Below, in pieces: positions 566-20,271 of a DNA stretch of 24,670 nucleotides. Where the stretch lies: the NCBI GenBank assembly GCA_003221005.1, contig QHTZ01000028.1, forward strand, positions 1-24,670, given 5' to 3'. Below the pieces are notes generated by a model. That model saw nothing but the letters and a program-made list of their open reading frames with translations, made no database searches and was not told where the DNA came from. The position numbers and the translations under genes were made by a program. Positions within the stretch are counted from its first letter, which is position 1. Each line of letters begins with the position of its first letter. This DNA is from Gemmatimonadota bacterium (GTDB taxonomy: Bacteria; Gemmatimonadota; Gemmatimonadetes; Gemmatimonadales; GWC2-71-9).

Positions 566-1966
566 TCACGTCGGCAGCGCGGCGAGGAGCGGCGCCGCGT
601 GCCGCGCTCGCTCGAGATCCTCGGGGATCTCGGTCGGGTAGTCCCCCGAGAAGCATGCGTGGCAGAACTCCCCAGGATCGCCGCCCGCGGCACGCAGCAT
701 CCCGTCGAGCGACAGGTAGCCAAGGGTGTCCACGCCCAGGTGCTGGCGAATCTCTTCGATGCTGTTGGTCGACGCGATCAGCTCCTTCTTGCTCGGTGTG
801 TCTATCCCGTAGTAGCAGGGTCCGGTGATGGGGGGCGAGCCCACGCGGAAGTGCACTTCCTTGGCGCCCGCCTGCCGGATCAGCTGCACCAGGGCCCGGC
901 TCGTCGTGCCGCGCACGATGGAGTCGTCCACCACTACGACCCTCTTGCCCTCGAGCACCTCGCGCACGGGATTGAACTTGATCTTCACCTTGGCCGTGCG
1001 CCCCGCCTGCACCGGTTGGATGAAGGTGCGCCCCACGTAGTGATTGCGGATCAGCGCGTGCTCGAGCTTGAGCCCGGACACCTCCGAGAAGCCCAGCGCC
1101 ATCGCGTTCGACGAGTCGGGGACGGAGAAGACGCAGTCGGCGCCGGGAACGGGATGCTCCCGCGCGAGCTCGCGACCGAGCTCCCGCCGCACCCGGTCCA
1201 CCGAGCGATGGAACACGGTGCTGTCGGGGCGCGAGAAGTAGACCAGCTCGAAGACGCAGCGGCGATGCGGGCGGGATGGCAGGGAGGGAAGCTCGTCCAG
1301 GTCCGATCCCTGAATCCGGATCACGTTGCCCGGCTCGAGCTCCCGCGCCGGCGTGGCGCCGAGGATGTCGAGGGCGCACGTCTCGGAGGCGACCACCCAG
1401 CCGCTCCCGAGGCGCCCCAGCACGAGCGGTCGGAAGCCCCGCGGATCCATGATCGCGTACAGCGTGCGCCCGATTGTGACCACGAGCGAGTAGGCCCCCT
1501 CCACCCGCTCCAGCGCGTCCAGCAGCTGGTCCTCGGGCTCGCGCGCCTCGGATCGGGCGACCAGATGCACCAGCACTTCGCTGTCGGACGACGTCTGAAA
1601 GATCGAGCCCTTGGCGACGAGGTCGGAGCGGAGCTGCACGGCGTTCGTGAGGTTGCCGTTGTGGGCGAGGGCGAGCGGGCCTTCGCGGTAGCCGGCGAGC
1701 ATCGGCTGCGCGTTGGCAAGCACCGAGGAGCCGGCAGTCGAGTAGCGCGTGTGCCCGATCGCGACGTCGCCCGGGAGGTTGGCGATGACCTGCTCGCTGA
1801 AGATGTCCGAGACGAGGCCCATCCCCCGCTGTGAGCGAGCGGCGCCGGCGCCGTCCACCGCCACGATCCCGGCCGACTCCTGGCCGCGGTGCTGCAGGCT
1901 GTAGAGCCCGAGATACACCTGGCGGGCAGCGTCTGGTACGCCCGAGAGTCCGATGATGCCGCACAT
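566..1966 (-). CDS. purF: Amidophosphoribosyltransferase (Fe-S type)
   Basis: True start is MCGIIG (ATG 1966, catalytic Cys after Met). Motifs LQHRGQESAG, GHTRYST, HNGNLTN, VVVDDSIVRGTT; Fe-S cysteines in CVFE, PCYYGID and FCHACF. The ORF-track extension to 2449 is spurious. Confidence 0.97.
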   Translation of the reverse strand: MCGIIGLSGVPDAARQVYLGLYSLQHRGQESAGIVAVDGAGAARSQRGMGLVSDIFSEQVIANLPGDVAIGHTRYSTAGSSVLANAQPMLAGYREGPLALAHNGNLTNAVQLRSDLVAKGSIFQTSSDSEVLVHLVARSEAREPEDQLLDALERVEGAYSLVVTIGRTLYAIMDPRGFRPLVLGRLGSGWVVASETCALDILGATPARELEPGNVIRIQGSDLDELPSLPSRPHRRCVFELVYFSRPDSTVFHRSVDRVRRELGRELAREHPVPGADCVFSVPDSSNAMALGFSEVSGLKLEHALIRNHYVGRTFIQPVQAGRTAKVKIKFNPVREVLEGKRVVVVDDSIVRGTTSRALVQLIRQAGAKEVHFRVGSPPITGPCYYGIDTPSKKELIASTNSIEEIRQHLGVDTLGYLSLDGMLRAAGGDPGEFCHACFSGDYPTEIPEDLERARHAAPLLAALPT

Positions 1967-1974
1967 GCGCGCTG

Positions 1975-4236
1975 TCAGTCTCCCATGCGACGGGGGATCG
2001 CGTTGAAATATACGTCGCGGAGCTGGCCGACGGGGTGGCGACTTTCGGCGTTGCGCAGCGTGATTCGGACCGTGCCGTTCCGCTCGCCGACGGTCCCCGC
2101 GCGATACGCCGGCACGCCGAGCTCCTGCGCCAGGGCGAGGGCGGCGGCCGCGCGCTCCGGCGCGCACGTGATCACCGCGCGAGCCTGCGATTCGCTGAAC
2201 AGGACCTCGGCAGCCGTGAGTCGGGAGTAGGAGGAGAGATCGATCTCGAGCCCGAGGCCGTTCTCCTGATACGGGCCACCCATGGCGACCTCCGCGAGCG
2301 CCACTCCGAGCCCGCCCTGTGAGCAGTCGTGAGCCGACCGAAACAGGCCACGCTCGGCGCCCGTGACCAGATAGTCCACGAGTCGTCGCTCGGCGGCGAG
2401 ATCGACGCGCGGTGGTGTGCCGCCCTTGAAACCGTGCAGCGCCTCCCACAGCGCCGAGCCGCCGAGCTCCGCGCGCGTTTCCCCCAGCACGAACACCACG
2501 TCACCCGGCGCGGACGCGTGACTCGGCACCGCGCGGTCGATCCGCGCCAGGAGACCGACCATCCCCACCACGGGGGTTGGGTCCACGGCGCCGGTCGGGC
2601 TCTCGTTGTAGAACGAGACGTTGCCGCCGGTCACCGGCGTCCCGAGCGCCCGGCAGGCGTCGGCGATGCCGCGGCAGGCCTCGCGGAACTGGTAGAAGAC
2701 CTCGGGGCGCTCAGGGCTGCCGAAGTTGAGGCAGTCGGTGATTCCGAGGGGGCGGGCGCCGGAGCAGGCGACGTTGCGGGCGGCTTCTGCTACCGCCGCC
2801 TTCCCACCCTCGTATGGGTCGAGCCGCACGTAGCGGCTGTTGCCGTCTACGGTCACCGCGATCCCGAACTCGGCGTCGCGCACGCGGATTACACCCGCGT
2901 CGCCGCCGGGCCCGAACACGGTGCTCGCCTGGACCGTCGAGTCATACTGCTCGTAGACCCAGCGCTTCGAAGCGATCGCGGGATAGTCGAGTAGGCGCAG
3001 CAACACCTCATCGGGAGGCGGGAGGTGGGAGGCGGGAGGGGGTTGTGCGCGGCGCAGCTCCGCGATCCTCGGATCCTCTTGAGCCGCCGGGTCGTAGACG
3101 GGACAGTCTTCGACAAGGCGTTTGCCCGGAATCTCCGCCACGGTCTGGTCACCCCACCTCGCGCGATACATGCCGTCGTCGGTCACCCGGCCGATCGGGG
3201 TTGCGGTGAGCTCCCACTTGGCGGCGATCGCGGCGACCTGCGCGAGGCGGTCGGGCTTCGCGACCACGAGCATCCGCTCCTGGGACTCGGACAGCAGGAT
3301 CTCGTACGGGGTCATTCCCGGCTCCCGCGTGGGGACGAGCGAGAGGTCGATCTCGACCCCCACGCCACCCCGCGCCGCCATCTCGGCGGAGGACGAGGTA
3401 AGCCCTGCGGCGCCCATGTCCTGAATCGCCACGATGTGACCCGAGGCGATGAGCTCGAGGCTCGCCTCCAACAGGAGCTTCTCGGTGAAGGGATCGCCGA
3501 CCTGGACCTGGGGCCGTCGCTGCTCGCTGTCGTGCGTCAGCTCCTCGGACGCGAACGAGGCGCCGTGGATCCCGTCCCGCCCAGTGCGCGATCCGACGAC
3601 CACGAGCACGTTCCCCACTCCGCGCGCGGCGGCCCGGATCAGGTCGCGCTCCCGCACTAGACCCACGCACATGGCGTTGACGAGAGGATTGCCGGCGTAG
3701 CTCGCCCCGAAGTCCACTTCGCCCCCCAAGGTGGGGACGCCGACGCAGTTGCCGTAGTCGCCGATTCCCCTGACCACGCCCGCGCAGAGATAGCGGCTGC
3801 GCGGGTCCGCGAGGTCGCCGAAGCGCAGGCTGTTGAGGAGCGCCACGGGGCGTGCGCCCATGGTGAACACGTCGCGCAGGATGCCGCCCGCGCCCGTCGC
3901 GGCGCCTTGGTAGGGCTCCACCGCCGACGGATGATTGTGCGACTCGATCTTAAACGCGACCGCCCACCCGTCAGGGAGTCGCAGCACGCCGGCGTTCTCG
4001 CCCGGGCCCTGGACGACCTGGGGGCCTGTGGTCGGAAACTGCCTGAGCACCTGCTTCGAGTGCTTGTAGGAGCAGTGCTCGCTCCAGAGGGCGGAGAAGA
4101 TGCCAAGCTCCGCGAACGTGGGCGCGCGGCCCAGCAACGCCTCCACGTGGCGGTACTCGTCCGCGGTGAGATTGTGCTCGCGGACGAGCGCCGGCGTGAT
4201 CGGTGGGTCGCCCGGGAAGGGAGCGGGGCCGCTCAC
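1975..4236 (-). CDS. purL: Phosphoribosylformylglycinamidine synthase subunit PurL (small type)
   Basis: Motifs [64 protein letters not shown] start at 4236 overlaps the upstream TGA (GTGA). Confidence 0.96.
3013..3040 (+). repeat. Tandem heptamer repeat (GGGAGGN)x4 inside purL, G-quadruplex-type motif
   Basis: GGGAGGC GGGAGGT GGGAGGC GGGAGGG read directly; encodes the [10 protein letters not shown] linker on the minus strand. Confidence 0.85.
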
Positions 4237-4559
4237 TCGTCGAGCACCTTGGCCCCGGTGACGCCCCGCATGACCGCTCCGAACACGCGCGTGAAGATGC
4301 CGCGCTCGGGATGCTGCAGCAGCTGCTCCGCCTCGCCGGCGTCGAACCACAGGCCGTGGCAGTGCGTGCACTGGTCGATCTGCACGCCGTGCCAATCGCC
4401 CGTAATGAGGTCGTACCCGCACTTGGGGCACTTCATATGGTGGGAGCGGCGCTCGAGCTCAGCTGCGGTGCGGCGCGCCGCCTCGCGCTGCTGCCGGCGC
4501 AGCTCGGCGTCGCGGCGGGCGAAGTACTCCTCTTCGTTCTTGCTCGGCTTTTCGGTCAT
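4233..4559 (-). CDS. Small zinc-ribbon protein (zf-TFIIB-like family)
   Basis: 108 aa with an N-terminal charged helix ([14 protein letters not shown]), then MKCPKC-x17[13 protein letters not shown]. Start and stop overlap both neighbours. Confidence 0.85.
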
Positions 4560-5230
4560 GTAGTGTCGGGCCGGACTTTGAGATTGCCGCCGCCGGGCGG
4601 CGGCCCGTGGGGCTCTACGCTCGCGGGCGAGGAGGATTGGCCGCTGTAGTTGTGGCCCGGCCAGCGCACGATCGCGTCCACCACCTGGCCCTTCTGCAGG
4701 GTCACGACGTCAAGGGTGCCACACGTGTACTCGCAGCCGTTCTTGAAGAACAGGTACGTGAACTCACGGAGGTGTCGCACGGCCACGGGCGGGCCCCACA
4801 CCGAGTACACGTCCTTCTCGTGCATCCCTGGAGTGATGGTGCCGGTGTCATCGGAAACGTAGGGCTCGTCGCGCAGCCGCGGCGGGTTCATGCTGGTGGG
4901 GAGCTGCGGCGGCGCGGGCGGCGCCGGTGCCGCGGCTACGCGGCGCGGCGGCGTCGCGGGCGCGGGCTTCCCGGAGCCCGCGGGGGCAGCCGGCGCCCCG
5001 CCCGGAGGCGCGGGAGCCGGTGTGGGCTCCGCTGTGGGCGGGGGAGGCGGCGGCTTCTTGTGCAGCAACCTCTGGCGCAGGAGATCCACCTTCTGCCTCA
5101 GGGATGCGCCGATCGTCCTCACCGATGGGCCGATCGTCGTGCCGATCGTCGCGACTTGCTTCTTGACACGGTCACACCCGGAGGTGGCGGTCACCAACAG
5201 CGCGCACATCAACAGCGTGCTGCGTCGCAT
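4556..5230 (-). CDS. Hypothetical lipoprotein with Pro/Ala-rich linker and a C-terminal domain resembling SmpA/BamE-type folds
   Basis: Start [19 protein letters not shown] (lipobox-like, ATG 5230), long [16 protein letters not shown] linker, C-terminal [17 protein letters not shown]...CEYTC. ATGA overlap with the next gene. Confidence 0.7.
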
Positions 5231-10737: not shown

Positions 10738-11793
10738 ATGCCCGACACTTCCGCGCCGCTTCAGGAAGCGCTTGCGTTCCTCGCCAATCGCCGGTCGCTG
10801 AGCGAGCGCCTCACGGCGCAGGTGTTCGGCGTCGTCATGCGCGGCGAGGCGACGCCGGCCCAGGTGGCAGCCCTCCTCATGGGCCTGCGCGTAAAGGGGG
10901 AAACCCCTGACGAGGTCGCCGGCGCGGCCCGCGCGCTGCGGGAGGCGATGGTGCGGGTCGATGCGGCCGGGCCACACCTCGTGGACACCTGCGGCACGGG
11001 AGGTGGCGCCGTCGGGACGTTCAACATCTCGACCGCTGCTGCGTTCGTGGCCGCCGGCGCAGGAGCGACGGTGGCGAAGCACGGCAACCGCTCGTTTACG
11101 TCGAAGTGCGGGTCGGCGGATGTGCTGGAAGCGCTGGGCGTGACGATCGCCTTGGACGCGGGCGCCGCAGCGCGGGTGCTGCGCGAAGCATGCGTCACAT
11201 TCTTGTTCGCGCCAAACTTTCACCCCGCCATGAAGCACGTCGGACCGGTGCGCCGCGAGCTCGGCGTGCCATCGGTGATGAATCTGGTCGGGCCGCTCGC
11301 AAACCCGGCCGGGGCGCGGCGCCAGGTGCTTGGAGTCGCGGACCCGGAGCGCGTGGCGCTCATGGCTGAAGCGCTGGCGCGCCTTGGGGCTGAGCACGCC
11401 ATGGTCGTTCACGGGCGCATCGGAATGGACGAGGTCTCGCCCCTCGGGATGACGGATGTGTGGGAGGTTCGTGACGGTCGCGTGACCCATTGGGAGCTCG
11501 ACCCGGCGCAGTACGGCTACGCGATCGCCGACGCGGGGGCGCTGGCCGGCGGGGAGCCCGCCAACAACGCCGCGCGCGTTGAAGCATTGCTGGCGGGAGG
11601 GGGCAACGACGCTGCGGGGCGGGCCGCCGTCATGCTCAACGCCGGGGCCGCCGTCTACGTGGCGGGTCTCGCCTCGACCTATGTGGAGGGGATCAAGCGG
11701 GCAGCCGATGCCATCAGCCGGGGCCTAGCGCTACGCGCGCTCGAGCGGCTGCGCCAGGCGAGCGCTGGTGCCTCGGCTAGTACTTCCGGATGA
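10738..11793 (+). CDS. trpD: Anthranilate phosphoribosyltransferase
   Basis: LRVKGET, VDTCGTGG, TFNIST, AKHGNRSFTSKCGSADVLEALG, FAPNFHPAMK, NLVGPLANP, GMDEVS. Start is ATG 10738 or GTG 10723. Confidence 0.96.
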   Translation: MPDTSAPLQEALAFLANRRSLSERLTAQVFGVVMRGEATPAQVAALLMGLRVKGETPDEVAGAARALREAMVRVDAAGPHLVDTCGTGGGAVGTFNISTAAAFVAAGAGATVAKHGNRSFTSKCGSADVLEALGVTIALDAGAAARVLREACVTFLFAPNFHPAMKHVGPVRRELGVPSVMNLVGPLANPAGARRQVLGVADPERVALMAEALARLGAEHAMVVHGRIGMDEVSPLGMTDVWEVRDGRVTHWELDPAQYGYAIADAGALAGGEPANNAARVEALLAGGGNDAAGRAAVMLNAGAAVYVAGLASTYVEGIKRAADAISRGLALRALERLRQASAGASASTSG

Positions 11794-12385
11794 CGCCGAC
11801 CACGACTCCCTGCACGACGACGTCGCGCTCGTTCACGCGCAGCGGCGCCACACTGGGGTTAGCGGGCTGAAGGCGAATCCAGCCCCCGGGCTCGCGGTAG
11901 AACTTCTTGACCGTGGCGCTGCTGCCGTGGACCAACGCGACCACCATCTGGCCGCTGTCCGCCTGGTTCCGTTCTTGGACGATCACGAAATCGCCGTCGC
12001 GGATCTGCTCGTCGATCATGGAGCTCCCGCGGACCTTCAGGACGTAGCTGCGACCGCGTCGCGGCACCAGCTCGTCGGGCACGGCCAGCGTGTCGTCCCC
12101 CGTGATCGCCTCGATCGGCTCGCCCGCCGCCACGAGGCCCAGCAGCGGCAGCTCGGTGGCCCCCGTCTGGCCCTTCGGCGGAACGACCTCGATCGCGCGG
12201 CTCTCGTTGTGGGTGCGCCGGATGAACCCTTTGCGCTCCAGGTTCGTGAGATGCTCGTGCACGGTCGCGAGCGACTGGAAACCGAATTGCCGGGCGATCT
12301 CCTCGAAGCTCGGCGCGTACCCCTTGCTCTCGATATGTTGCGAGATGAAATCGAAGATCTCGCGCTGACGGCGCGTGAGCGGCAC
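11777..12385 (-). CDS. lexA: SOS repressor LexA
   Basis: LTRRQREIFDFI...GYAPSFEEIA winged HTH, VAAGEP (Ala-Gly cleavage site), GSSMID (catalytic Ser), ATVKKF (catalytic Lys), LQPAN. GGGAG RBS upstream. Confidence 0.97.
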   Translation of the reverse strand: MPLTRRQREIFDFISQHIESKGYAPSFEEIARQFGFQSLATVHEHLTNLERKGFIRRTHNESRAIEVVPPKGQTGATELPLLGLVAAGEPIEAITGDDTLAVPDELVPRRGRSYVLKVRGSSMIDEQIRDGDFVIVQERNQADSGQMVVALVHGSSATVKKFYREPGGWIRLQPANPSVAPLRVNERDVVVQGVVVGVIRKY

Positions 12386-12442: not shown

Positions 12443-13234
12443 ATGGCCCAAGCCACGCTCGACACGATCCTCGCTGCCACGCGGCGCCGCGTCGCCGAGC
12501 TGCGGCCCCGGGCATCCGAGCTCGAGCGGCGCGCCGCCCAGGCGCCCGCGCCGCCGCGGTTCGCCGACGCCCTCAAGGGACCCCTGGTCGGCGTGATCGC
12601 CGAGGTCAAGCGGCGGTCCCTATCGGCCGGCGCCATCGCTCCGGGGCTCGATCCCGTCGCCCACGCGGCGGCCTACGCCCGGGGCGGCGCCGTGGCGATC
12701 TCGGTCCTCACCGACGAGCCCCACTTCGGCGGGTCACTCGAGGACTTGGAACGCGTGGCGCGGGAGGTCCCGGTGCCCGCGCTCCGCAAGGACTTCATCC
12801 TCGACGAGCTGCAGCTGCTCGAAGCGCGGGGGGCGGGCGCGAGCGGTGTCCTCCTGATCGTGCGGGCGGTGACGCCGGCGCGGCTGCGAGACCTGGCGCG
12901 CACGGCCGGCGCACTCGGCCTGGGCGTGCTCGTCGAAGTGCATACCGAGCTTGAGCTCGACGCAGCCCTCGCGGCGGAGCCGACCGCGGTGGGCGTCAAT
13001 AGTCGCGACCTCGCGACGTTCGCCGTGGATCTCGGCCTGGCCTTGCGGCTCGTGGCGCGCGTCCCCCACGGCATCCCGGCGGTAGCGGAGAGCGGCATTG
13101 AGGGTCGCGCTGACGTCGAGCGGTTCGCGGCGGCGGGCGCGGACCTCGTACTGGTAGGGACCTCCGTGGCCCGGACGACCGATCCGGCCTCCTCGGTACG
13201 GGCGCTTGTGGGCGTCCCAAGGAAAAGTCGATGA
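12443..13234 (+). CDS. trpC: Indole-3-glycerol phosphate synthase
   Basis: [52 protein letters not shown]. Confidence 0.96.
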
Positions 13235-14430
13235 CCGACGACCGCATGACAGCTCCCGGGCGGTTTGGTCGCTACGGCGGGCGGTACGTCCCGGAGACGC
13301 TGATGGCGGCGCTTGAGCAGCTCGAGGCGGTCTACGCCGCGGCGCAGGCGGACCCCGCTTTCTGGGCGGAGCTTGACGGGCTGCTCCGCGATTACGTGGG
13401 CCGGCCCACGCCGCTCACCGAAGTACCGCGCCTCTCGGCAGCGGTCGGGCCGGGGGTACGCGTGGTGCTCAAGCGCGAGGATCTGAACCACACGGGGGCG
13501 CACAAGATCAACAACACCCTCGGTCAGGGGCTCTTGGCCCGCCGCATGGGGAAGCGGCGCATTATCGCCGAGACCGGGGCCGGGCAGCACGGCGTGGCCA
13601 CGGCGACCGTGTGCGCCCGTTTCGGACTCGACTGCGTCGTGTACATGGGTGAAGAGGACATGCGGCGCCAGCGGCTCAACGTTTATCGCATGGAGCTGAT
13701 GGGCGCGCGCGTCGTCCCCGTGGCCTCTGGTACCAAGACGCTGAAAGACGCGACCAACGAAGCGCTGAGGGACTGGGTCACCAACGTCACGGACACCCAC
13801 TACATCATCGGGTCGGTCGTGGGTCCCGATCCCTTCCCCCGCATCGTGCGGGACTTCCAGGCTGTGATCGGGCGCGAAGCGCGCGCCCAGGTGCTCGAGC
13901 GGTACGGGCGCTTACCCAAGAGCGTCGTCGCGTGTGTGGGTGGCGGATCGAACGCGATGGGCATCTTTACGGCCTTCCTCGACGACCGGAGCGTGGAGCT
14001 CGTGGGGGTCGAGGCGGCGGGCGAGGGGGTGGAGACGGGGCGGCACGCCGCGTCGCTGGGGCGCGGCCGTCCCGGGGTATTCCACGGCAGCCTCAGCTAC
14101 CTACTGCAAGATGCGGACGGCCAGGTGCAGCCGGCCCACAGCGTGTCGGCGGGGCTCGACTACCCCGGGGTGGGGCCGGAGCACGCTTTTCTCAAGGACT
14201 CCGGCCGCGTATTGTATCAGGCGATCACAGACCGAGAGGCCCTGGAGGCGTTCGGGGAGCTGTCGCGGCTGGAGGGGATCCTCCCGGCCCTCGAGAGCGC
14301 ACATGCCGTGGCGTGGGTGCGGACCCGCCGCGAGCGTTGGAGCGAGGGCGATATCGTGCTCATCAACCTGAGCGGGCGCGGCGACAAGGACGTCGCAATG
14401 GTCGCCGAGCTCAGCGGGGCCACCCCGTGA
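13231..14430 (+). CDS. trpB: Tryptophan synthase beta chain
   Basis: [28 protein letters not shown] (PLP lysine), [43 protein letters not shown]. Confidence 0.98.
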
Positions 14431-16027
14431 CCGGCATCAGCCGGTTTGCACCGGCTCACGTCCCGGAGCTGGCGCTGCCCCCGGCGCAGGTCGAGGAGCT
14501 GATGCAGGTCCTCGTGAAGGGTCTGCGCGCCACCCAGCTCTACCTGCCGAACAATCCGGTGTACCAGCGCGCGGTCGAGAACATTCGCGCGAGCTTCCGT
14601 CAAATCTGGCAGGCGACCGACGATCTCCACCTCGACGTGGAGGAGACCTCGTTCAAGTGGGAGAACGCGGTCGTCTACAGCCAGGAGCAGCGTGGGGAGA
14701 GTATCGCCTGGACCTTGTACAAGGACGGGATCCGCTCGGTCACCATTCGTCCGGGCGTCGAGGACGCGGAGATCGTGCGCTTCCTCGCCGTGCTGCACAA
14801 GGCGAAGAACCTCGCCGCCGACGCGCCCGACGACCTGCTGACGCTGCTCTGGTCGGAGGACTTCCAGTTCATCAGCTACACGTTCCGCGAGCTCGCGGCG
14901 GAGAACGCCGTCCCGATCGAAGCGGGCGAGACGATCCCCTCGGCCCCTCCCAGCGAGATCCGCCACGCGGTCGAGCAGGAGGCCCCGCCGCGGCCCGAAG
15001 GCATTGTGTCGATCGAGGAGTTCGACACGACGCTCTACTTCCTCGAGGAGCGCGAGATCGAGTACCTGCGCAAGGAGGCCGACCGGGAGTATGCGCAGGA
15101 CTTGCGGCGCAACGTGCTCGCGATGCTGTTCGACCTGCTCGAGCTGCAGACCTACGGCACCGTACGGGCGGAGCTGATCGGGATCGTCGAGAACTTCATC
15201 CCCTATCTGCTCGGCGCTGGGGACTTCCGGTCGGTCGCCTACATCCTGCGTGAGGTGCGCGTGGTGCTGGAGCGGGCGCGCGAGCCACGGTGCACCCCAC
15301 CGAGGAGGAGCTCAGCGAAACCTTCCGGGAGCTGCGCGCCGAGGCGTTGCCGACCCTGATGGGCTGGATCCCGCGCCTCACGAACGAGCGGGTGCGCGAT
15401 CTCGTCAACACAGCCGCGTCGCGCCTCGCGCAGGATCACGCGAGCGAAGTGTTGATGGCGCTCGCGAGCCCGGACTCAGGGGCGCAGCTCGAAATGGTCC
15501 GGCTCGCCGGACGCCTCAAGCTGGCGGGCGCCCCGGACGGCATGGGGCCTCTGCTCGACAGCGAGGACCGCACGCTGAAGCTCGCCGTGGTGGAGGCGCT
15601 GACCCACATCGCCAGCCCCTCCGCGCTGCGGCTGCTCGAGAAAGCGGTGGACGACGGCGACCGCGACGTGCGCATTGCGGCCGTGAAATTCCTGGCGTCG
15701 CGGGGACATCGCAACGTGTTCAACCGGGTGGAAGCGGCGGTAACGGGCGCGAGACTGAAGCATACCGATCTCACCGAGAAGATGGCGTTCTACGAGGCGT
15801 ACGGGACGCTCGCCGGGCCCAAGGGGATCCCCGTGCTCGAGAAGACCCTCATCGCGAAGGGGCTGCTCGCGAAGAAGGAGGATCCCGAGACCCGGGCCTG
15901 CGCGGCGATGGCGCTCGGCAAGATCCGCACACCCGAAGCCCGGGCCGTGCTCGAAAAGGCGTCGCAGGACAAGGAGGCGCTGGTCCGGAACGCCGTCAGC
16001 CGGGCGCTGCGCGAGGTCGGATCGTGA
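14427..16027 (+). CDS. HEAT-repeat protein with an uncharacterised N-terminal domain, split by a frameshift near 15284
   Basis: GTG 14427 overlaps the trpB stop. Frame 1 reads sensibly to VLERARE, then frame 2 continues [10 protein letters not shown] with HEAT/PBS-like repeats ([48 protein letters not shown]) to TGA 16027. Confidence 0.8.
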
Positions 16028-17502
16028 GCGGCAGCGCGCCCGAGGGTCGCCGGGCATCGATCGTCGAGACCGTCGCCACCACGGACGGCTTCCTGCGCCT
16101 CGCAGGACGCGATTTCCTCGTCGTCCTCTACACGGCATTCCGCTCGCTCAAGCTGTACCCGCTCGAGAACGCCCAGGTGCAGAAGGCGCTGGACGACCTG
16201 GGCGCCACCACGAAGCACCTCCTCGACGTGGAGCGGGAGATCGAGCTGCGGATGCAGGGCGAGTTCATCTTCGTCAACTCGACGCGGCTGCGCCTCGACC
16301 TCGACAACTATGCCTCGTTCTCCCACATCCTGGGCGTGCTCCGGCAGTGCGGCATCGGCGCTGTCCGCGTGGACGAAGGCGTGGACCGCAAGCAGCTCCA
16401 GATCTTCGTCTCCCTGCTGCTCTCGTACGCGGCCAAGGAGGTAAATCCGAACAAGGTGTTCGAGCTCGGGCAGAAGCTGAGCGACGGCGGCGTCACCTGC
16501 ATCGGCGTCGAGCCCCCGCTCGAGACCGAGGAGGACGTGGAGGACGTCGAGCGGCAGAAGGAGGCGGCGAAGCGCACCTACGCCCGCTCGGTGGCGGTGA
16601 CCAAAGAGGTCATCAACAGCATCCGCATGGGCCGCACCGCCAACGTGAAGAAGGTGAAGCGCGCCGTGCAGGCGATTGTGGACCAGGTGCTGAACAACGA
16701 GGCGTCGCTCGTCGGCCTGACGACGCTGCGCGACTACGACGAGTACACGTTCACCCACTCGGTGAACGTGAGCATCTTCTCAGTCGCCCTGGGGCGTAAG
16801 CTCGGCTTCTCCAAGCTGCAGCTCTACGACCTCGGCATGGCCGCGCTGTTCCACGACGTGGGCAAGTCCCGCGTGCCCCTCGAGATCCTGAACAAGCAGG
16901 GCGGCTTAAGCGACGAAGAGTGGCGCATCATGACGGCGCACCCATGGCTCGGAGTGCTCACGCTCTTCGGGCTGCGGGGCTATGGGGAGATCCCCTACCG
17001 CGGGATGATCGTCGCGTACGAGCACCACATGAAGACGGATCTCACCGGGTACCCGAAGTCACTTCGGGCCCGCGAGCTGTCCATCTTCTCCAAGATCGTC
17101 GCGGTGGCCGACGGCTTCGACGCGGCCACGAGCCGGCGCGCATATCAGACGGTGCCGATTCAGCCGGACCAGGTGCTCAAGGAAATGTGGGAGAACCCCC
17201 GTCGCGGCTACGACCCCGTGGTGGTGAAGGCCTTCATCAACCTCATCGGCATTTATCCCGTGGGGACGTGCGTGATCCTCGACACCATGGAGGTGGCGAT
17301 CGTCCACGCGGCCAACCCCGACGTGACCCAGGTGCACCGCCCCGTGGTGCGGATCGTCGCCACACCCGAAGGCGCGGTGCAGCACCCCGGCGTCCTGGCT
17401 GATCTGGCGCAGCGCGACGCCCAGGGCAACTACCCGAGGACCGTCGTCAAGGTCACCGACCCCCAGAAATACGGCATCAACGTCAGCGACTATTTTGTCT
17501 GA
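16024..17502 (+). CDS. HD-GYP domain protein (putative cyclic-dinucleotide phosphodiesterase or binder)
   Basis: GTG 16024 overlaps the upstream stop. DEYTFTHSVNV, FHDVGK, HPWLG, HHMKTDLTGYP, VADGFDAATSRRAY, and a C-terminal GIYPVGTCVIL extension. Confidence 0.9.
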   Translation: MSGSAPEGRRASIVETVATTDGFLRLAGRDFLVVLYTAFRSLKLYPLENAQVQKALDDLGATTKHLLDVEREIELRMQGEFIFVNSTRLRLDLDNYASFSHILGVLRQCGIGAVRVDEGVDRKQLQIFVSLLLSYAAKEVNPNKVFELGQKLSDGGVTCIGVEPPLETEEDVEDVERQKEAAKRTYARSVAVTKEVINSIRMGRTANVKKVKRAVQAIVDQVLNNEASLVGLTTLRDYDEYTFTHSVNVSIFSVALGRKLGFSKLQLYDLGMAALFHDVGKSRVPLEILNKQGGLSDEEWRIMTAHPWLGVLTLFGLRGYGEIPYRGMIVAYEHHMKTDLTGYPKSLRARELSIFSKIVAVADGFDAATSRRAYQTVPIQPDQVLKEMWENPRRGYDPVVVKAFINLIGIYPVGTCVILDTMEVAIVHAANPDVTQVHRPVVRIVATPEGAVQHPGVLADLAQRDAQGNYPRTVVKVTDPQKYGINVSDYFV

Positions 17503-18286
17503 CCACCCGATCGCGGCGCGGTGGCGCGTGGTCCGGGACGAGCGCCGCGCTGCGCTCATTCCGTACCTCACCGCGGGTTACCCCACGCCGGCGCGCGCGG
17601 TCGAGGCGTTGCGCATGGTCGCAGCCGCGGGCGCGGACCTGGTGGAGGTCGGCCTCCCGTTTTCCGATCCCCTGGCGGACGGCGTCACGATCCAGCGCTC
17701 CACGCAGGCTGCGCTCGATCAGGGCGTGACGGCGGCGCGCGCGCTCGAACTGGTCGACCAGGCAGCGCTCGATATCCCGGTCGTGATCATGACCTACGTC
17801 AATCCGGTGCTGGCGTACGGCGTCGAGCGGTTCCTCTCCGATGCCCACGCGGCGGGTGCCTCCGGGCTGCTGCTCACCGATTTCCCCGCGGGCGCCGACC
17901 CCGACCTCGAGGAGCGCGTGGCGGCGAGTCCGCTCGCCCTGATCCGCCTGATCGCGCCCACGACGCAGCCCGAGCGCCTGGCGCGCGCAGTCCGGGGCGC
18001 GAGCGGATTCATCTACCTCATCTCGCGCCTCGGGGTCACGGGCGCTCGCGACGAGGCGCCGCCGGATCTCTCCAAGCACGTCGCTGCGATCCGCGCCGCC
18101 ACGCGTTTGCCCATCGCGGTAGGGTTTGGGATCGGCACGGCGGCGCAGGCGCGCGCCACGGCACGCGTGGCCGACGGCGTGGTCGTCGGGAGCGCGTTGG
18201 TGGAGGCGCTGGGCGGGGGCGGCCTGTCCGAGGCGGAGCGTCTCGTCCGCGCGCTCGCCGCGGCGGTGCGGGAGGAGCGGCGGTGA
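17495..18286 (+). CDS. trpA: Tryptophan synthase alpha chain
   Basis: [68 protein letters not shown] start. Confidence 0.97.
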
Positions 18287-20271
18287 CGGCCCAGCGGCTC
18301 GTCGTGCTGTACAGCCGGGCGCTGGTGTACGCCGGCCCCGCGTTGCTCGTCGCCGTGCTGCTCGCCGATCGGCGCTGGACGGGACAGGTCCCGGAGCTCG
18401 TCGCGTTGCTCGCGGGGGGCATCGCGCTCCGCACCGCACTCGCGGTCGGCGTCAGCACGTTCGCCGTGGACTGGCTGTGGCTCCGTAAGGCGCCCCAGGC
18501 GGCGGCCGTCAATCTCGGGCGCGAGCTGATCGCGGCGGTCGCGGCCTACGGGGTGTACGCGGGATTGGTGCACGCCTCCAGTGCTCCGCCCGGGCTGCAC
18601 GTGGAGACCCTCCCGGGGCTGTTCTTCTACGGCCTCTGCTACTTCGTTTGCACCCGGCTGCTGTTCTATTTCGCGCTCATCATCCGGGGGAAGCTCGAGC
18701 AGAGCGAGCGCCTCCTGATCCTGCGCTACGAGTGCATCAGCTTCGGCGCGACGATCATCGCCGCGGCGTGCGTCGTGGGGACCGTCGTGTACTGGCCGCC
18801 GGTCGCCTGGCTGTTCGTGGGGGCTGTCCTGGGGGCGATTGGCCTGCTCTTCAAGAAGACCATGGAGGAGGCGATCGCCGCCGAGGAGCTCAACAAGGTC
18901 CACGCGATGGAGGCGGTGATCACGAGCAACGTGAGCCTGCATGACTCCTTTGCCCGGATCGAGCGGCTGGCGCACCGGCTCATGGACTGGGGTGACTTCC
19001 GCATCTACCGCCACCACGAGGGCCAGCTCGCGCTCGCCTACCGCGGGGAAATCGGGCGCGCCGAGCGCGAGGAGCCGTCGCCCGACGTCGCGGAGCTGCG
19101 CCGGCAGGTCGTCACGTCGGGGGAGTCGGTGCTCATCGACGACGTGACGCGCGACCGCCGCGTGACGGACGCCAGCCTCAACGTCCAGAGCCTCGTCATC
19201 ATGCCGCTCAAGTTCGGTGACCAGGTGATCGGGACGTTCGAGCTCGACCATCACAAGCGCAAGTCGTATCGGCCCAAGGATCTGGTCACCATCACGACGT
19301 TCGCGGCGCAGCTCGCCACGGCCATCCACATCACGGAGCTGCGGCGCCCGCTGCTCGACACGGTCGACCGCCTGAACGCGCAGCTGGGCACGCTGGCTCG
19401 GGCCGCCGTGGCGCTGCGCGAAGCGGCGGGCGCGGTCGCGGGGTCCACGAACGTGATCCGCGAGGGCGTGGTGGCCGAGCAGGGCGAAGTCTCGGGCGGC
19501 CTCGCAGCCACCGAGAGCCTGGCGCAGGTCTCGCGGCGCGTGTCGGTCGACGGTGCCCAGGCGGCGCAGGCCTCGAGCACGGCGAGCGACGTGGCGAGCC
19601 GCAACCGCCAGCAGATTCGTGAAGCCATCGAGCGCCTGGTCGCATTGAAGCTGTTCGTGGGCGAGAGCTCGGCCAAGGTGCAGCAGCTGGGTCAGGTCTC
19701 GCGGCGGATCACCGGCTTCATCGCATCGATCCGCGACCTCGCGGACCTCACGAACCTGCTGTCCCTCAACGCGGCGATCGAAGCGGCGCGGGCGGGCAAG
19801 CATGGCCGAGGGTTCGCGGTCGTAGCGGAAGAAGTGCGCCGCCTCGCCGAGCAGAGCGCGAGCGCCGCGGCTGAGGCGGCCGAGCTGGTGCAGGATATCC
19901 ACCGGCAGGTGGGCGAAGTCGTGGAGCAGATGCGGCGCGGCCAGGTGAATGTGGGCGGTGTGGAGGAGCTCTCGTCAGCAGCGCTGCAGGCGCTGGACGC
20001 CATCGTGGCGGCGACCGCGGACGCAACCGAGCACGCGCGCCGCATCGCGGCGGCTGCGGGCGAGCAGGACACGGCGTTCGCGCGCCTGCGCGAGCGTATC
20101 CACGCGGTGGCCGCGATTGCGGGGAAGAACCGCGCCGAAGCGGACGACGTCGCCACCCGGGCGAGCGAGGCGGCGCGCGGGCTCTCGGACCTGGAGCGCG
20201 CGACGCGCGAGCTGGAGGAGGTCGCCGCGATGCTGAGAGACCTCACCCGCGGCTTTGCGACGGTTGCGTAG
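18283..20271 (+). CDS. Multi-TM + GAF + methyl-accepting chemotaxis (MCP) signalling-domain protein
   Basis: GTG 18283 overlaps the trpA stop. Several hydrophobic helices, a GAF-like region ([19 protein letters not shown]), and the MCP hairpin-tip motif [36 protein letters not shown]. Confidence 0.9.

Follow-up and report, generated by a model that had tools for sequence, protein, structure and literature searches.

A HEAT-repeat gene (gene A) stands directly before an HD-GYP gene (gene B) in a soil Gemmatimonadales bacterium, and the two encoded proteins begin with the same uncatalogued domain. The pair lies in a DNA stretch of 24,670 nucleotides (positions 1 to 24,670, forward strand, of contig QHTZ01000028.1 in NCBI GenBank assembly GCA_003221005.1), which is called the window here. 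The window's own genome measures 2.79 Mb in 141 contigs and is 94% complete. With moderate confidence, we propose that A and B encode the two components of a conserved unit for cyclic-dinucleotide signalling, in which the proteins would associate and the solenoid of A would place or control the phosphodiesterase B.

Homology of the N-terminal domains

The shared domain was delimited in both proteins by using hhalign.

14481..14906, + strand: N-terminal domain shared with B, residues 19-160 of A, which carries the motif QLYLPNNP (profile A4, E 7.6e-49)
16087..16521, + strand: N-terminal domain shared with A, residues 22-166 of B, which carries the motif KLYPLENA (profile A4, E 1.7e-44)

An initial annotation of this DNA had matched the N-termini of A and B by eye. 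The likeness can already be detected by BLASTP with the two window proteins (26.2 bits, E 0.001), which aligned residues 24-123 of A with residues 30-132 of B at 24 identical positions out of 111. Family profiles were built from orthologues of 38 relatives, and all of the profile-profile comparisons were significant: P was 1.4e-5 over 125 columns for the full-length alignments of A and B, 1.9e-5 over 99 columns when hhalign was run on residues 1-340 of A against 1-215 of B, and 1.2e-6 over 98 columns for the domain-only alignments. In the controls, the reversed templates (20/20) gave P ≥ 0.019, and the lowest value among 80 column shuffles (20 per pair, four pairs) was 0.012. The HHalign comparison that the initial annotation had asked for thus agrees with what had been seen by eye. 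The four segments matched there are found at the positions given for them and lie on matching predicted secondary-structure elements. For the 14-residue segment that was matched with IELRMQGEFIFVNS, the ungapped pairing fitted the predicted strands better than the gapped version produced by hhalign.

The AlphaFold models point in the same direction. The model of B residues 1-215 has a mean predicted local distance difference test (pLDDT) score of 82.8, with block means of 80-98 over residues 21-160. For residues 1-340 of the orthologue of A from the relative G005, the mean is 84.7 and the blocks over 21-160 reach 88-97. Helices (H) and strands (E) follow one another in the same way in the two models, namely as H-H-E-E-E-H-E-H-H-E. 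Across 131 aligned sequences from five families there is one invariant tyrosine residue, which sits in the motif LYPxxNP/HP; the joint alignment leaves out the unpublished genome G020, from which one of the 15 rows of the A' family came. In the models, the YPxxNP/HP motif occupies the turn that connects helices 1 and 2. Judged by profiles and predicted folds together, the N-terminal domains of A and B, of about 140 residues each, are homologous.

Five domain families and a second gene pair

Single-domain searches of 40 relatives showed that the domain heads five protein families in the order, which we call A, B, A', A'' and B'. A' consists of the domain and HEAT repeats (514 amino acids on G000:C26; HEAT_2 E 4.4e-25). 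A'' comprises open reading frames (ORFs) of 685-756 amino acids in the five loci with ORFs listed, and in the three proteins scanned HEAT_2 matched at E 1.5e-9, at 1.6e-5 and weakly at 0.056. B' consists of the domain and an HD-GYP domain in about 390 amino acids and reads HHIMLNGGGYP at the signature motif. The A''-type domain lies 5' of a B'-type HD-GYP gene in all ten fetched loci (L119-L128). At the five loci read, these ORFs touch each other or overlap, as at L123, where 1931-3985 and 3982-5154 share 4 bases. Thus, the design of two genes, one for a HEAT protein and one for an HD-GYP protein, occurs twice. A B' query did not find the B' domain in the window's own genome at its 94% completeness.

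All 10 pairs of family profiles align co-linearly over 90-114 columns, with P from 4e-12 to 4e-5. The strongest pairing is that of A with A' (4.4e-12); P is 1.9e-11 for A'/A'', 6.1e-11 for A''/B' and 5.1e-8 for A'/B, and the weakest pairing is A''/B (4.2e-5). A tree of 50 domains keeps the five families apart, on long branches, and places A and A' together with a support of 90/98.

The A' gene has a setting of its own. At L221:3940-5484 (G000:C26:9439-10983), its upstream neighbors are scpA, scpB and a pseudouridine synthase gene. Downstream comes a MoxR-type AAA gene, with a start that the stop codon of A' overlaps, and then a DUF58/VWA gene.

Searches of domain and fold catalogues

The initial annotation could not assign the domain to a family, and neither could the catalogues. 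No Pfam model covers it in A (including the G005 protein), B, A', A'' or B' at E ≤ 1 (E ≤ 0.1 for A''), P0001 has zero Pfam matches, and the NCBIfam scan returned only rows at chance level over the domain. Profiles of the N-terminal parts of A and B found nothing below E 0.25 among the PDB sequences. Fold searches of the models gave a similar picture. Foldseek against the PDB found nothing at E ≤ 0.001 for B 1-215 (best 0.24), and its best E for A 1-340 was 0.05. The fold search VIA wide gave a best Z of 5.4 for B 1-215 (5x8p_t, root-mean-square deviation 5.7, 92 aligned), with the other rows mostly long-helix or helical-bundle structures. For A 1-340 it reached Z 9.7, on the helical repeats at 221-340 only, so that the N-terminal domain was barely probed. 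A full-text literature search, judged by titles and the openings of abstracts, found no publication on such a pair of HEAT and HD-GYP proteins.

One named family came near. PF11871 (DUF3391) matched gene B at E 0.0095 with 16.9 bits against a cut-off of 27.8, and this match covers residues 168-210 at profile positions 93-135. None of the 21 genomes, and none of the 14 named genomes used as a control, has a PF11871 match over the cut-off, and the same sub-threshold result, confined to the linker, was seen in relatives. PF11871 did not match A, A', A'' or B'.

Co-inheritance and spread

A and B were each matched in 41/41 genomes of the order sample. In 39 of the 40 relatives the two genes are adjacent on one contig and strand; this count takes in the unpublished genome G020. 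The sole exception, G002, is 77% complete and has its B match at a contig end. The adjacency seen in the window is therefore conserved across the order. The coupling is also close: the stop of A and the start of B overlap by 4 bases in 25/38 loci, and the gap is ≤1 base in 35/38. Gene A is a single ORF of 536-628 amino acids in all 38 relatives examined, with 35-83% identity between the 5' part of the window's gene A and the relatives' protein. Gene B is 53-90% identical to the orthologue that adjoins gene A in the relatives.

Beyond the order, a joint profile of the domain matched 114 of 151 sampled genomes of the phylum, a sample that includes the unpublished genomes G083 and G121. By family, there were matches in f1 (71/71), f2 (30/31), f3 (2/2), f6 (3/6), f7 (1/16) and f10 (1/13), and none in the sampled genomes of f11 (0/3) and f12 (0/3). 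By the counts for f1, f2 and f3 in this sample, nearly all members of a widespread soil order have the A-B pair. Other searches stayed close to home: the 80 loci kept of 583 relatives from a contig search all have titles beginning with "Gemmatimonad", the look-up of 10 matched database clusters gave one organism name, Gemmatimonadaceae, and the matches listed in the first database search with the A domain, at least 120, were all close relatives. In the ESM Atlas, the B domain obtained low scores (0.76). The A domain scored 0.92 and 0.89 with clusters labelled mostly Thermodesulfobacteriota and 0.90 with one Gemmatimonadota cluster, which we take as leads only.

Against 1.84 billion representative proteins, the number of clusters matched by the joint profile was 9943 for E ≤ 0.001 and 3651 for E ≤ 1e-10; these counts are upper bounds, since a TPR protein is matched through the hairpin part of the profile. 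That protein, P0240 (2094 amino acids, TPR/ankyrin), is matched in 23 short stretches at profile positions 9-46. In its sequence, the domain's helical hairpin therefore resembles TPR, and the TPR protein is probably a spurious match. For a census of the output domains we took the best 150 matches, dropped the 78 shorter ones and scanned the 72 of at least 300 amino acids. HEAT repeats were found in 40, HD or HD_5 in 9, TPR in 1 and no Pfam domain in 22. The TPR protein aside, HEAT and HD-GYP are the only outputs joined to the domain among the matches that bear a Pfam domain.

The HD-GYP protein

The protein encoded by gene B continues after the N-terminal domain with three further parts.

16528..16626, + strand: long helix of residues 169-201 that joins the N-terminal domain to HD-GYP, predicted by the AlphaFold model
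16726..17223, + strand: HD-GYP catalytic domain, residues 235-400 (HD_5)
17224..17499, + strand: C-terminal extension of about 90 amino acids without family assignment

The identities given to the two genes in the initial annotation hold, with HEAT_2 at E 5.4e-21 for A and HD_5 at E 5.4e-21 for B. In B, HD_5 scores 75.5 bits (cut-off 27.2) and HD 45.2 bits (cut-off 22). The catalytic domain matches V-cGAP3 (5z7c) at E 5.5e-22 and PmGH (4mcw) at E 1.1e-21; the similarity of these scores does not tell cyclic di-GMP (c-di-GMP) from cyclic GMP-AMP (cGAMP) as the substrate. Residues H245, H277-D278, H306, H334-H335 and D363, aligned to the metal ligands of 4mcw, are kept, and so is G342-Y343-P344. 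B reads HHMKTDLTGYP where the motif is HHExh(D/N)GxGYP: HH, D and GYP are retained, with M in place of E and L in place of the first G. According to a passage of Galperin & Chou 2021, residue E185 of PmGH binds a third metal ion and the forms that lack this ligand make up a separate HD-GYP class. Tyr241 of B aligns with E185, which places B with the forms that have no third-metal ligand. B is thus expected to be an active enzyme of the binuclear class, with pGpG as its probable main product.

The C-terminal extension has no Pfam or NCBIfam match. It is conserved across 38 sequences of the B family (the window and 37 relatives), including an invariant Arg-Pro, while the B' proteins are shorter and carry much less sequence after HD-GYP than B. 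A PilZ-like reading of the extension, made by eye, was dropped because Pfam gave no support for it.

The HEAT protein and the break in its frame

In the window as assembled, gene A is split between two reading frames.

14427..15284, + strand: 5' part of gene A, residues 1-286, with the N-terminal domain, the linker and the first helical repeats
15284..15285, no strand: junction with 94 bases fewer than relatives (alignment with G005, G001 and G003, all of the same genus)
15287..16027, + strand: 3' part of gene A in frame 2, HEAT repeats (HEAT_2 E 5.4e-21)

Gene A encodes no catalytic domain. It is made of the N-terminal domain and an alpha-solenoid that ends in HEAT repeats, for which HEAT_2 scores 75.1 bits (cut-off 27.7) and HEAT 32.4 bits (cut-off 23.5). 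The intact G005 orthologue scores 70.7 bits with HEAT_2. In its model, the stretch 216-340 is made of helices, and the structures that it matches, at Z up to 9.7, are helical repeats.

The initial annotation had the N-terminal domain and the HEAT repeats in one reading frame, which is not so in the window, where the former is in frame 0 and the latter in frame 2. Neither this break nor the setting between trpB and trpA described below was mentioned there. Frame 0 runs over 14427-15359, with its stop codon at 15357-15359, and is out of register past 15284. Frame 2 is open from 15254, has its first start codon at 15290 and stops at 16027. The absence of 94 bases at 15284/15285 explains why the reading frame changes from 0 to 2.

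We very probably see an assembly fault here and not a pseudogene, judging by contigs of four public soil runs that were aligned over window positions 14900-15700. In X1 and in X3, a contig agrees with the window in every letter over 15187-15285, after which come 105 letters unlike the window. The X4 contig, which is less similar (9 other letters), runs on likewise for 93 letters. Past 15285, the consensus encodes, in the frame of gene A, the residues that the relatives have there. On the other side, in the X1 and X3 contigs from 15284 onward, the preceding letters encode the end of the relatives' stretch. None of the soil-run contigs listed has a piece that bridges 15284/15285 as the window does. 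It is quite unlikely that gene A is a true pseudogene with a real 94-base deletion in this strain, in which case B would act alone. The window as given does carry the deletion and the frameshift, and the soil runs may not come from the window's sample, a point that also weighs against our proposal. On the other side, the contigs of X1, X3 and X4 continue into the stretch known from relatives, and the flanks of gene A show no other damage.

The locus and its trp genes

The pair stands between the two tryptophan synthase genes of the window.

11777-12385, - strand: lexA, divergent, upstream of the string trpC-trpB-A-B-trpA
12443-13234, + strand: trpC
13231..14430, + strand: trpB, tryptophan synthase beta (PALP E 6.7e-43)
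14427 to the stop at 16027, + strand: gene A, beginning with GTG, in two frames as assembled
16024..17502, + strand: gene B, a 492-amino-acid HD-GYP protein with a GTG start
17495..18286, + strand: trpA, tryptophan synthase alpha, with a TTG start (Trp_syntA E 1.4e-79)
18283-20271, + strand: GAF-MCPsignal gene after trpA

Codons overlap at all three junctions of trpB-A-B-trpA (window 13231-18286). The trpB stop and the GTG start of gene A share the 4 bases GTGA at 14427-14430. The GTGA that joins A to B, noticed in the initial annotation, was located at 16024-16027, where the stop of A and the GTG start of B overlap by 4 bases. The overlap of gene B with trpA is 8 bases, the TTG start of trpA lying inside the end of gene B. 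We found no terminator-like site on the + strand from trpC to the gene after trpA, which is weak evidence for co-transcription, and a promoter and terminator scan of the locus gave nothing that exceeded shuffled controls.

Among the relatives, trpB and trpA flank the pair in 28/38 loci. In 29/38, trpB lies 5' of gene A, and one of these loci then ends at a contig edge; 9/38 have neither trp gene. In 8 of these 9 trp-less loci, gene A has lexA as its immediate upstream neighbor, and 3 of these 8 have a GAF-MCP gene after gene B. The GAF-MCP gene lies inside the fetched downstream flank in 25/38 loci. Since the pair is retained where trp genes are absent, its placement speaks for shared expression, and tryptophan synthase is not likely to be needed by it.

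Proposed mechanism and alternatives

The layout of B, with the N-terminal domain, a long linker helix, HD-GYP and the C-terminal extension in this order, places the domain where other HD-GYP enzymes have sensor or regulatory domains. In the mechanism that we propose, the A and B proteins would be made together and would associate, most simply through their like N-terminal domains, and the HEAT solenoid of A would then tether or control the phosphodiesterase B. The initial annotation had proposed hetero-oligomerization through the domain and regulation of B by A. Both are suggested by the gene order and by the coupling of the genes.

A complex prediction for A 15-165 with B 18-205, made with alignments but without its controls, had a score of 0.00 and gives no evidence either way. 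Several observations weigh against this mechanism. No result shows a contact between A and B. B has HHM for HHE and KQG for KPG, and with these changes full activity of B is not certain. A' has no HD-GYP neighbor, and hence the domain is not always in need of an adjacent HD-GYP partner. The tree does not settle the order of B, B' and A'', nor whether the HEAT-type and the HD-GYP-type domains form clades.

We also considered, as a somewhat unlikely alternative, that A and B are parallel sensors that form no complex. The domain would then bind the same signal, a small molecule or a protein, in A and in B, B would hydrolyze c-di-GMP while A scaffolds something else, and the gene coupling would serve co-expression only. 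The modeled position of the domain in B, 5' of the long linker helix, is that of a sensor. The most conserved residues (the invariant tyrosine and YPxxNP/HP) lie at the hairpin turn and could form a ligand site, and the A' protein without an HD-GYP neighbor fits as well. However, a 4-base overlap and strict adjacency in two paralogous pairs are the usual pattern for the subunits of one complex, and the fold searches identified neither a ligand pocket nor a known sensor fold.

The domain may instead be a homodimerization module, so that each protein is a homodimer, in keeping with the dimers in which HD-GYP enzymes work, and the adjacency is a remnant of tandem duplication and exchange of output domains, with a loose functional link between the two genes. 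The unrelated DUF3391 may promote a dimeric active form, as suggested in a passage of Galperin & Chou 2021, and the five domain families are well separated in the tree. This reading is distinctly improbable, as a remnant would hardly be expected to stay adjacent in 39/40 genomes, which span three families, nor to do so once more in another pair.

A chance or composition effect of two helical regions almost certainly does not account for the N-terminal similarity: the identity is low (14-22%) and the hairpin part of the profile also matches the 23 TPR stretches, but the ten family pairs are co-linear at P values that the controls never approached, and the models of A and B also share the strand part of the fold.

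The proposal of a two-part signalling unit can be carried further, to a highly speculative form. A and B would then belong to an unrecognized class of two-subunit HD-GYP phosphodiesterases, in which the HEAT subunit docks through the like N-terminal domains. In Gemmatimonadales the unit would be translated together with tryptophan synthase, in the string trpB-A-B-trpA, and the turnover of c-di-GMP would be tied to the supply of tryptophan or indole, with the domain as the sensor.

Significance

Of the two classes of c-di-GMP phosphodiesterases, the HD-GYP enzymes have received less study. The parts of these proteins outside the catalytic domain are often without a name: in most HD-GYP architectures in Pfam, HD or HD_5 is the sole recognized domain, according to the census given in Galperin & Chou 2021. 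In the A-B pair, an unassigned part of this kind is a defined domain, some 140 residues long, confidently predicted and with a conserved YPxxNP/HP turn, that occurs in up to about 10,000 clusters (an upper bound). The same domain is also present on a non-catalytic HEAT protein encoded next door. If A and B do bind each other, A would be a partner subunit for the HD-GYP class, of which none was found in the literature searched, and the pair would offer a testable handle on how such an enzyme is placed or switched.

Comparison with known systems

The C-terminal part of A matches HEAT_2 and HEAT_PBS, as do HEAT proteins of the PBS-lyase/NblB type, but A fails the NblB cut-off (44.7 bits against 300). 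To our knowledge, no member of the PBS-lyase/NblB-type family carries the N-terminal domain of A.

B resembles the Bd1817 family in having a non-enzymatic N-terminal domain (about 120-140 amino acids) and a long helix that leads to HD-GYP. This family, with PDB entry 3TM8 and the members PA4108 and VC2497, consists of DUF3391, a linker helix and HD-GYP, as described in passages of Galperin & Chou 2021. The structure 3tm8 is a sequence match for B over the helix before HD and the HD-GYP domain (residues 212-368, E 3.3e-8). DUF3391 in Bd1817 is described there as four strands followed by two long helices, unlike the models of A and B, which are predicted to begin with a two-helix hairpin that is followed by strands. 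3tm8 is not present among the listed fold matches, which does not exclude a likeness of fold, since models and not structures were compared. The main text of Galperin & Chou 2021 contains neither "HEAT" nor "Gemmatimon", and no partner protein is named in its passages on Bd1817.

RpfG and HnoD, as treated in passages of the same article, are precedents for HD-GYP proteins in protein-protein complexes. The A-B pair differs from HnoD in that the partner of the latter, HnoB (REC-EAL), is built of other domains, and these passages speak of no N-terminal module common to the partners.

The N-terminal domain of B is not the GAF domain of PmGH. In its catalytic domain, however, B is like PmGH of Persephonella marina (GAF-HD-GYP, 4MCW/4MDZ) and V-cGAP3 of Vibrio cholerae (5Z7C), which are the best solved relatives of this part of the protein.

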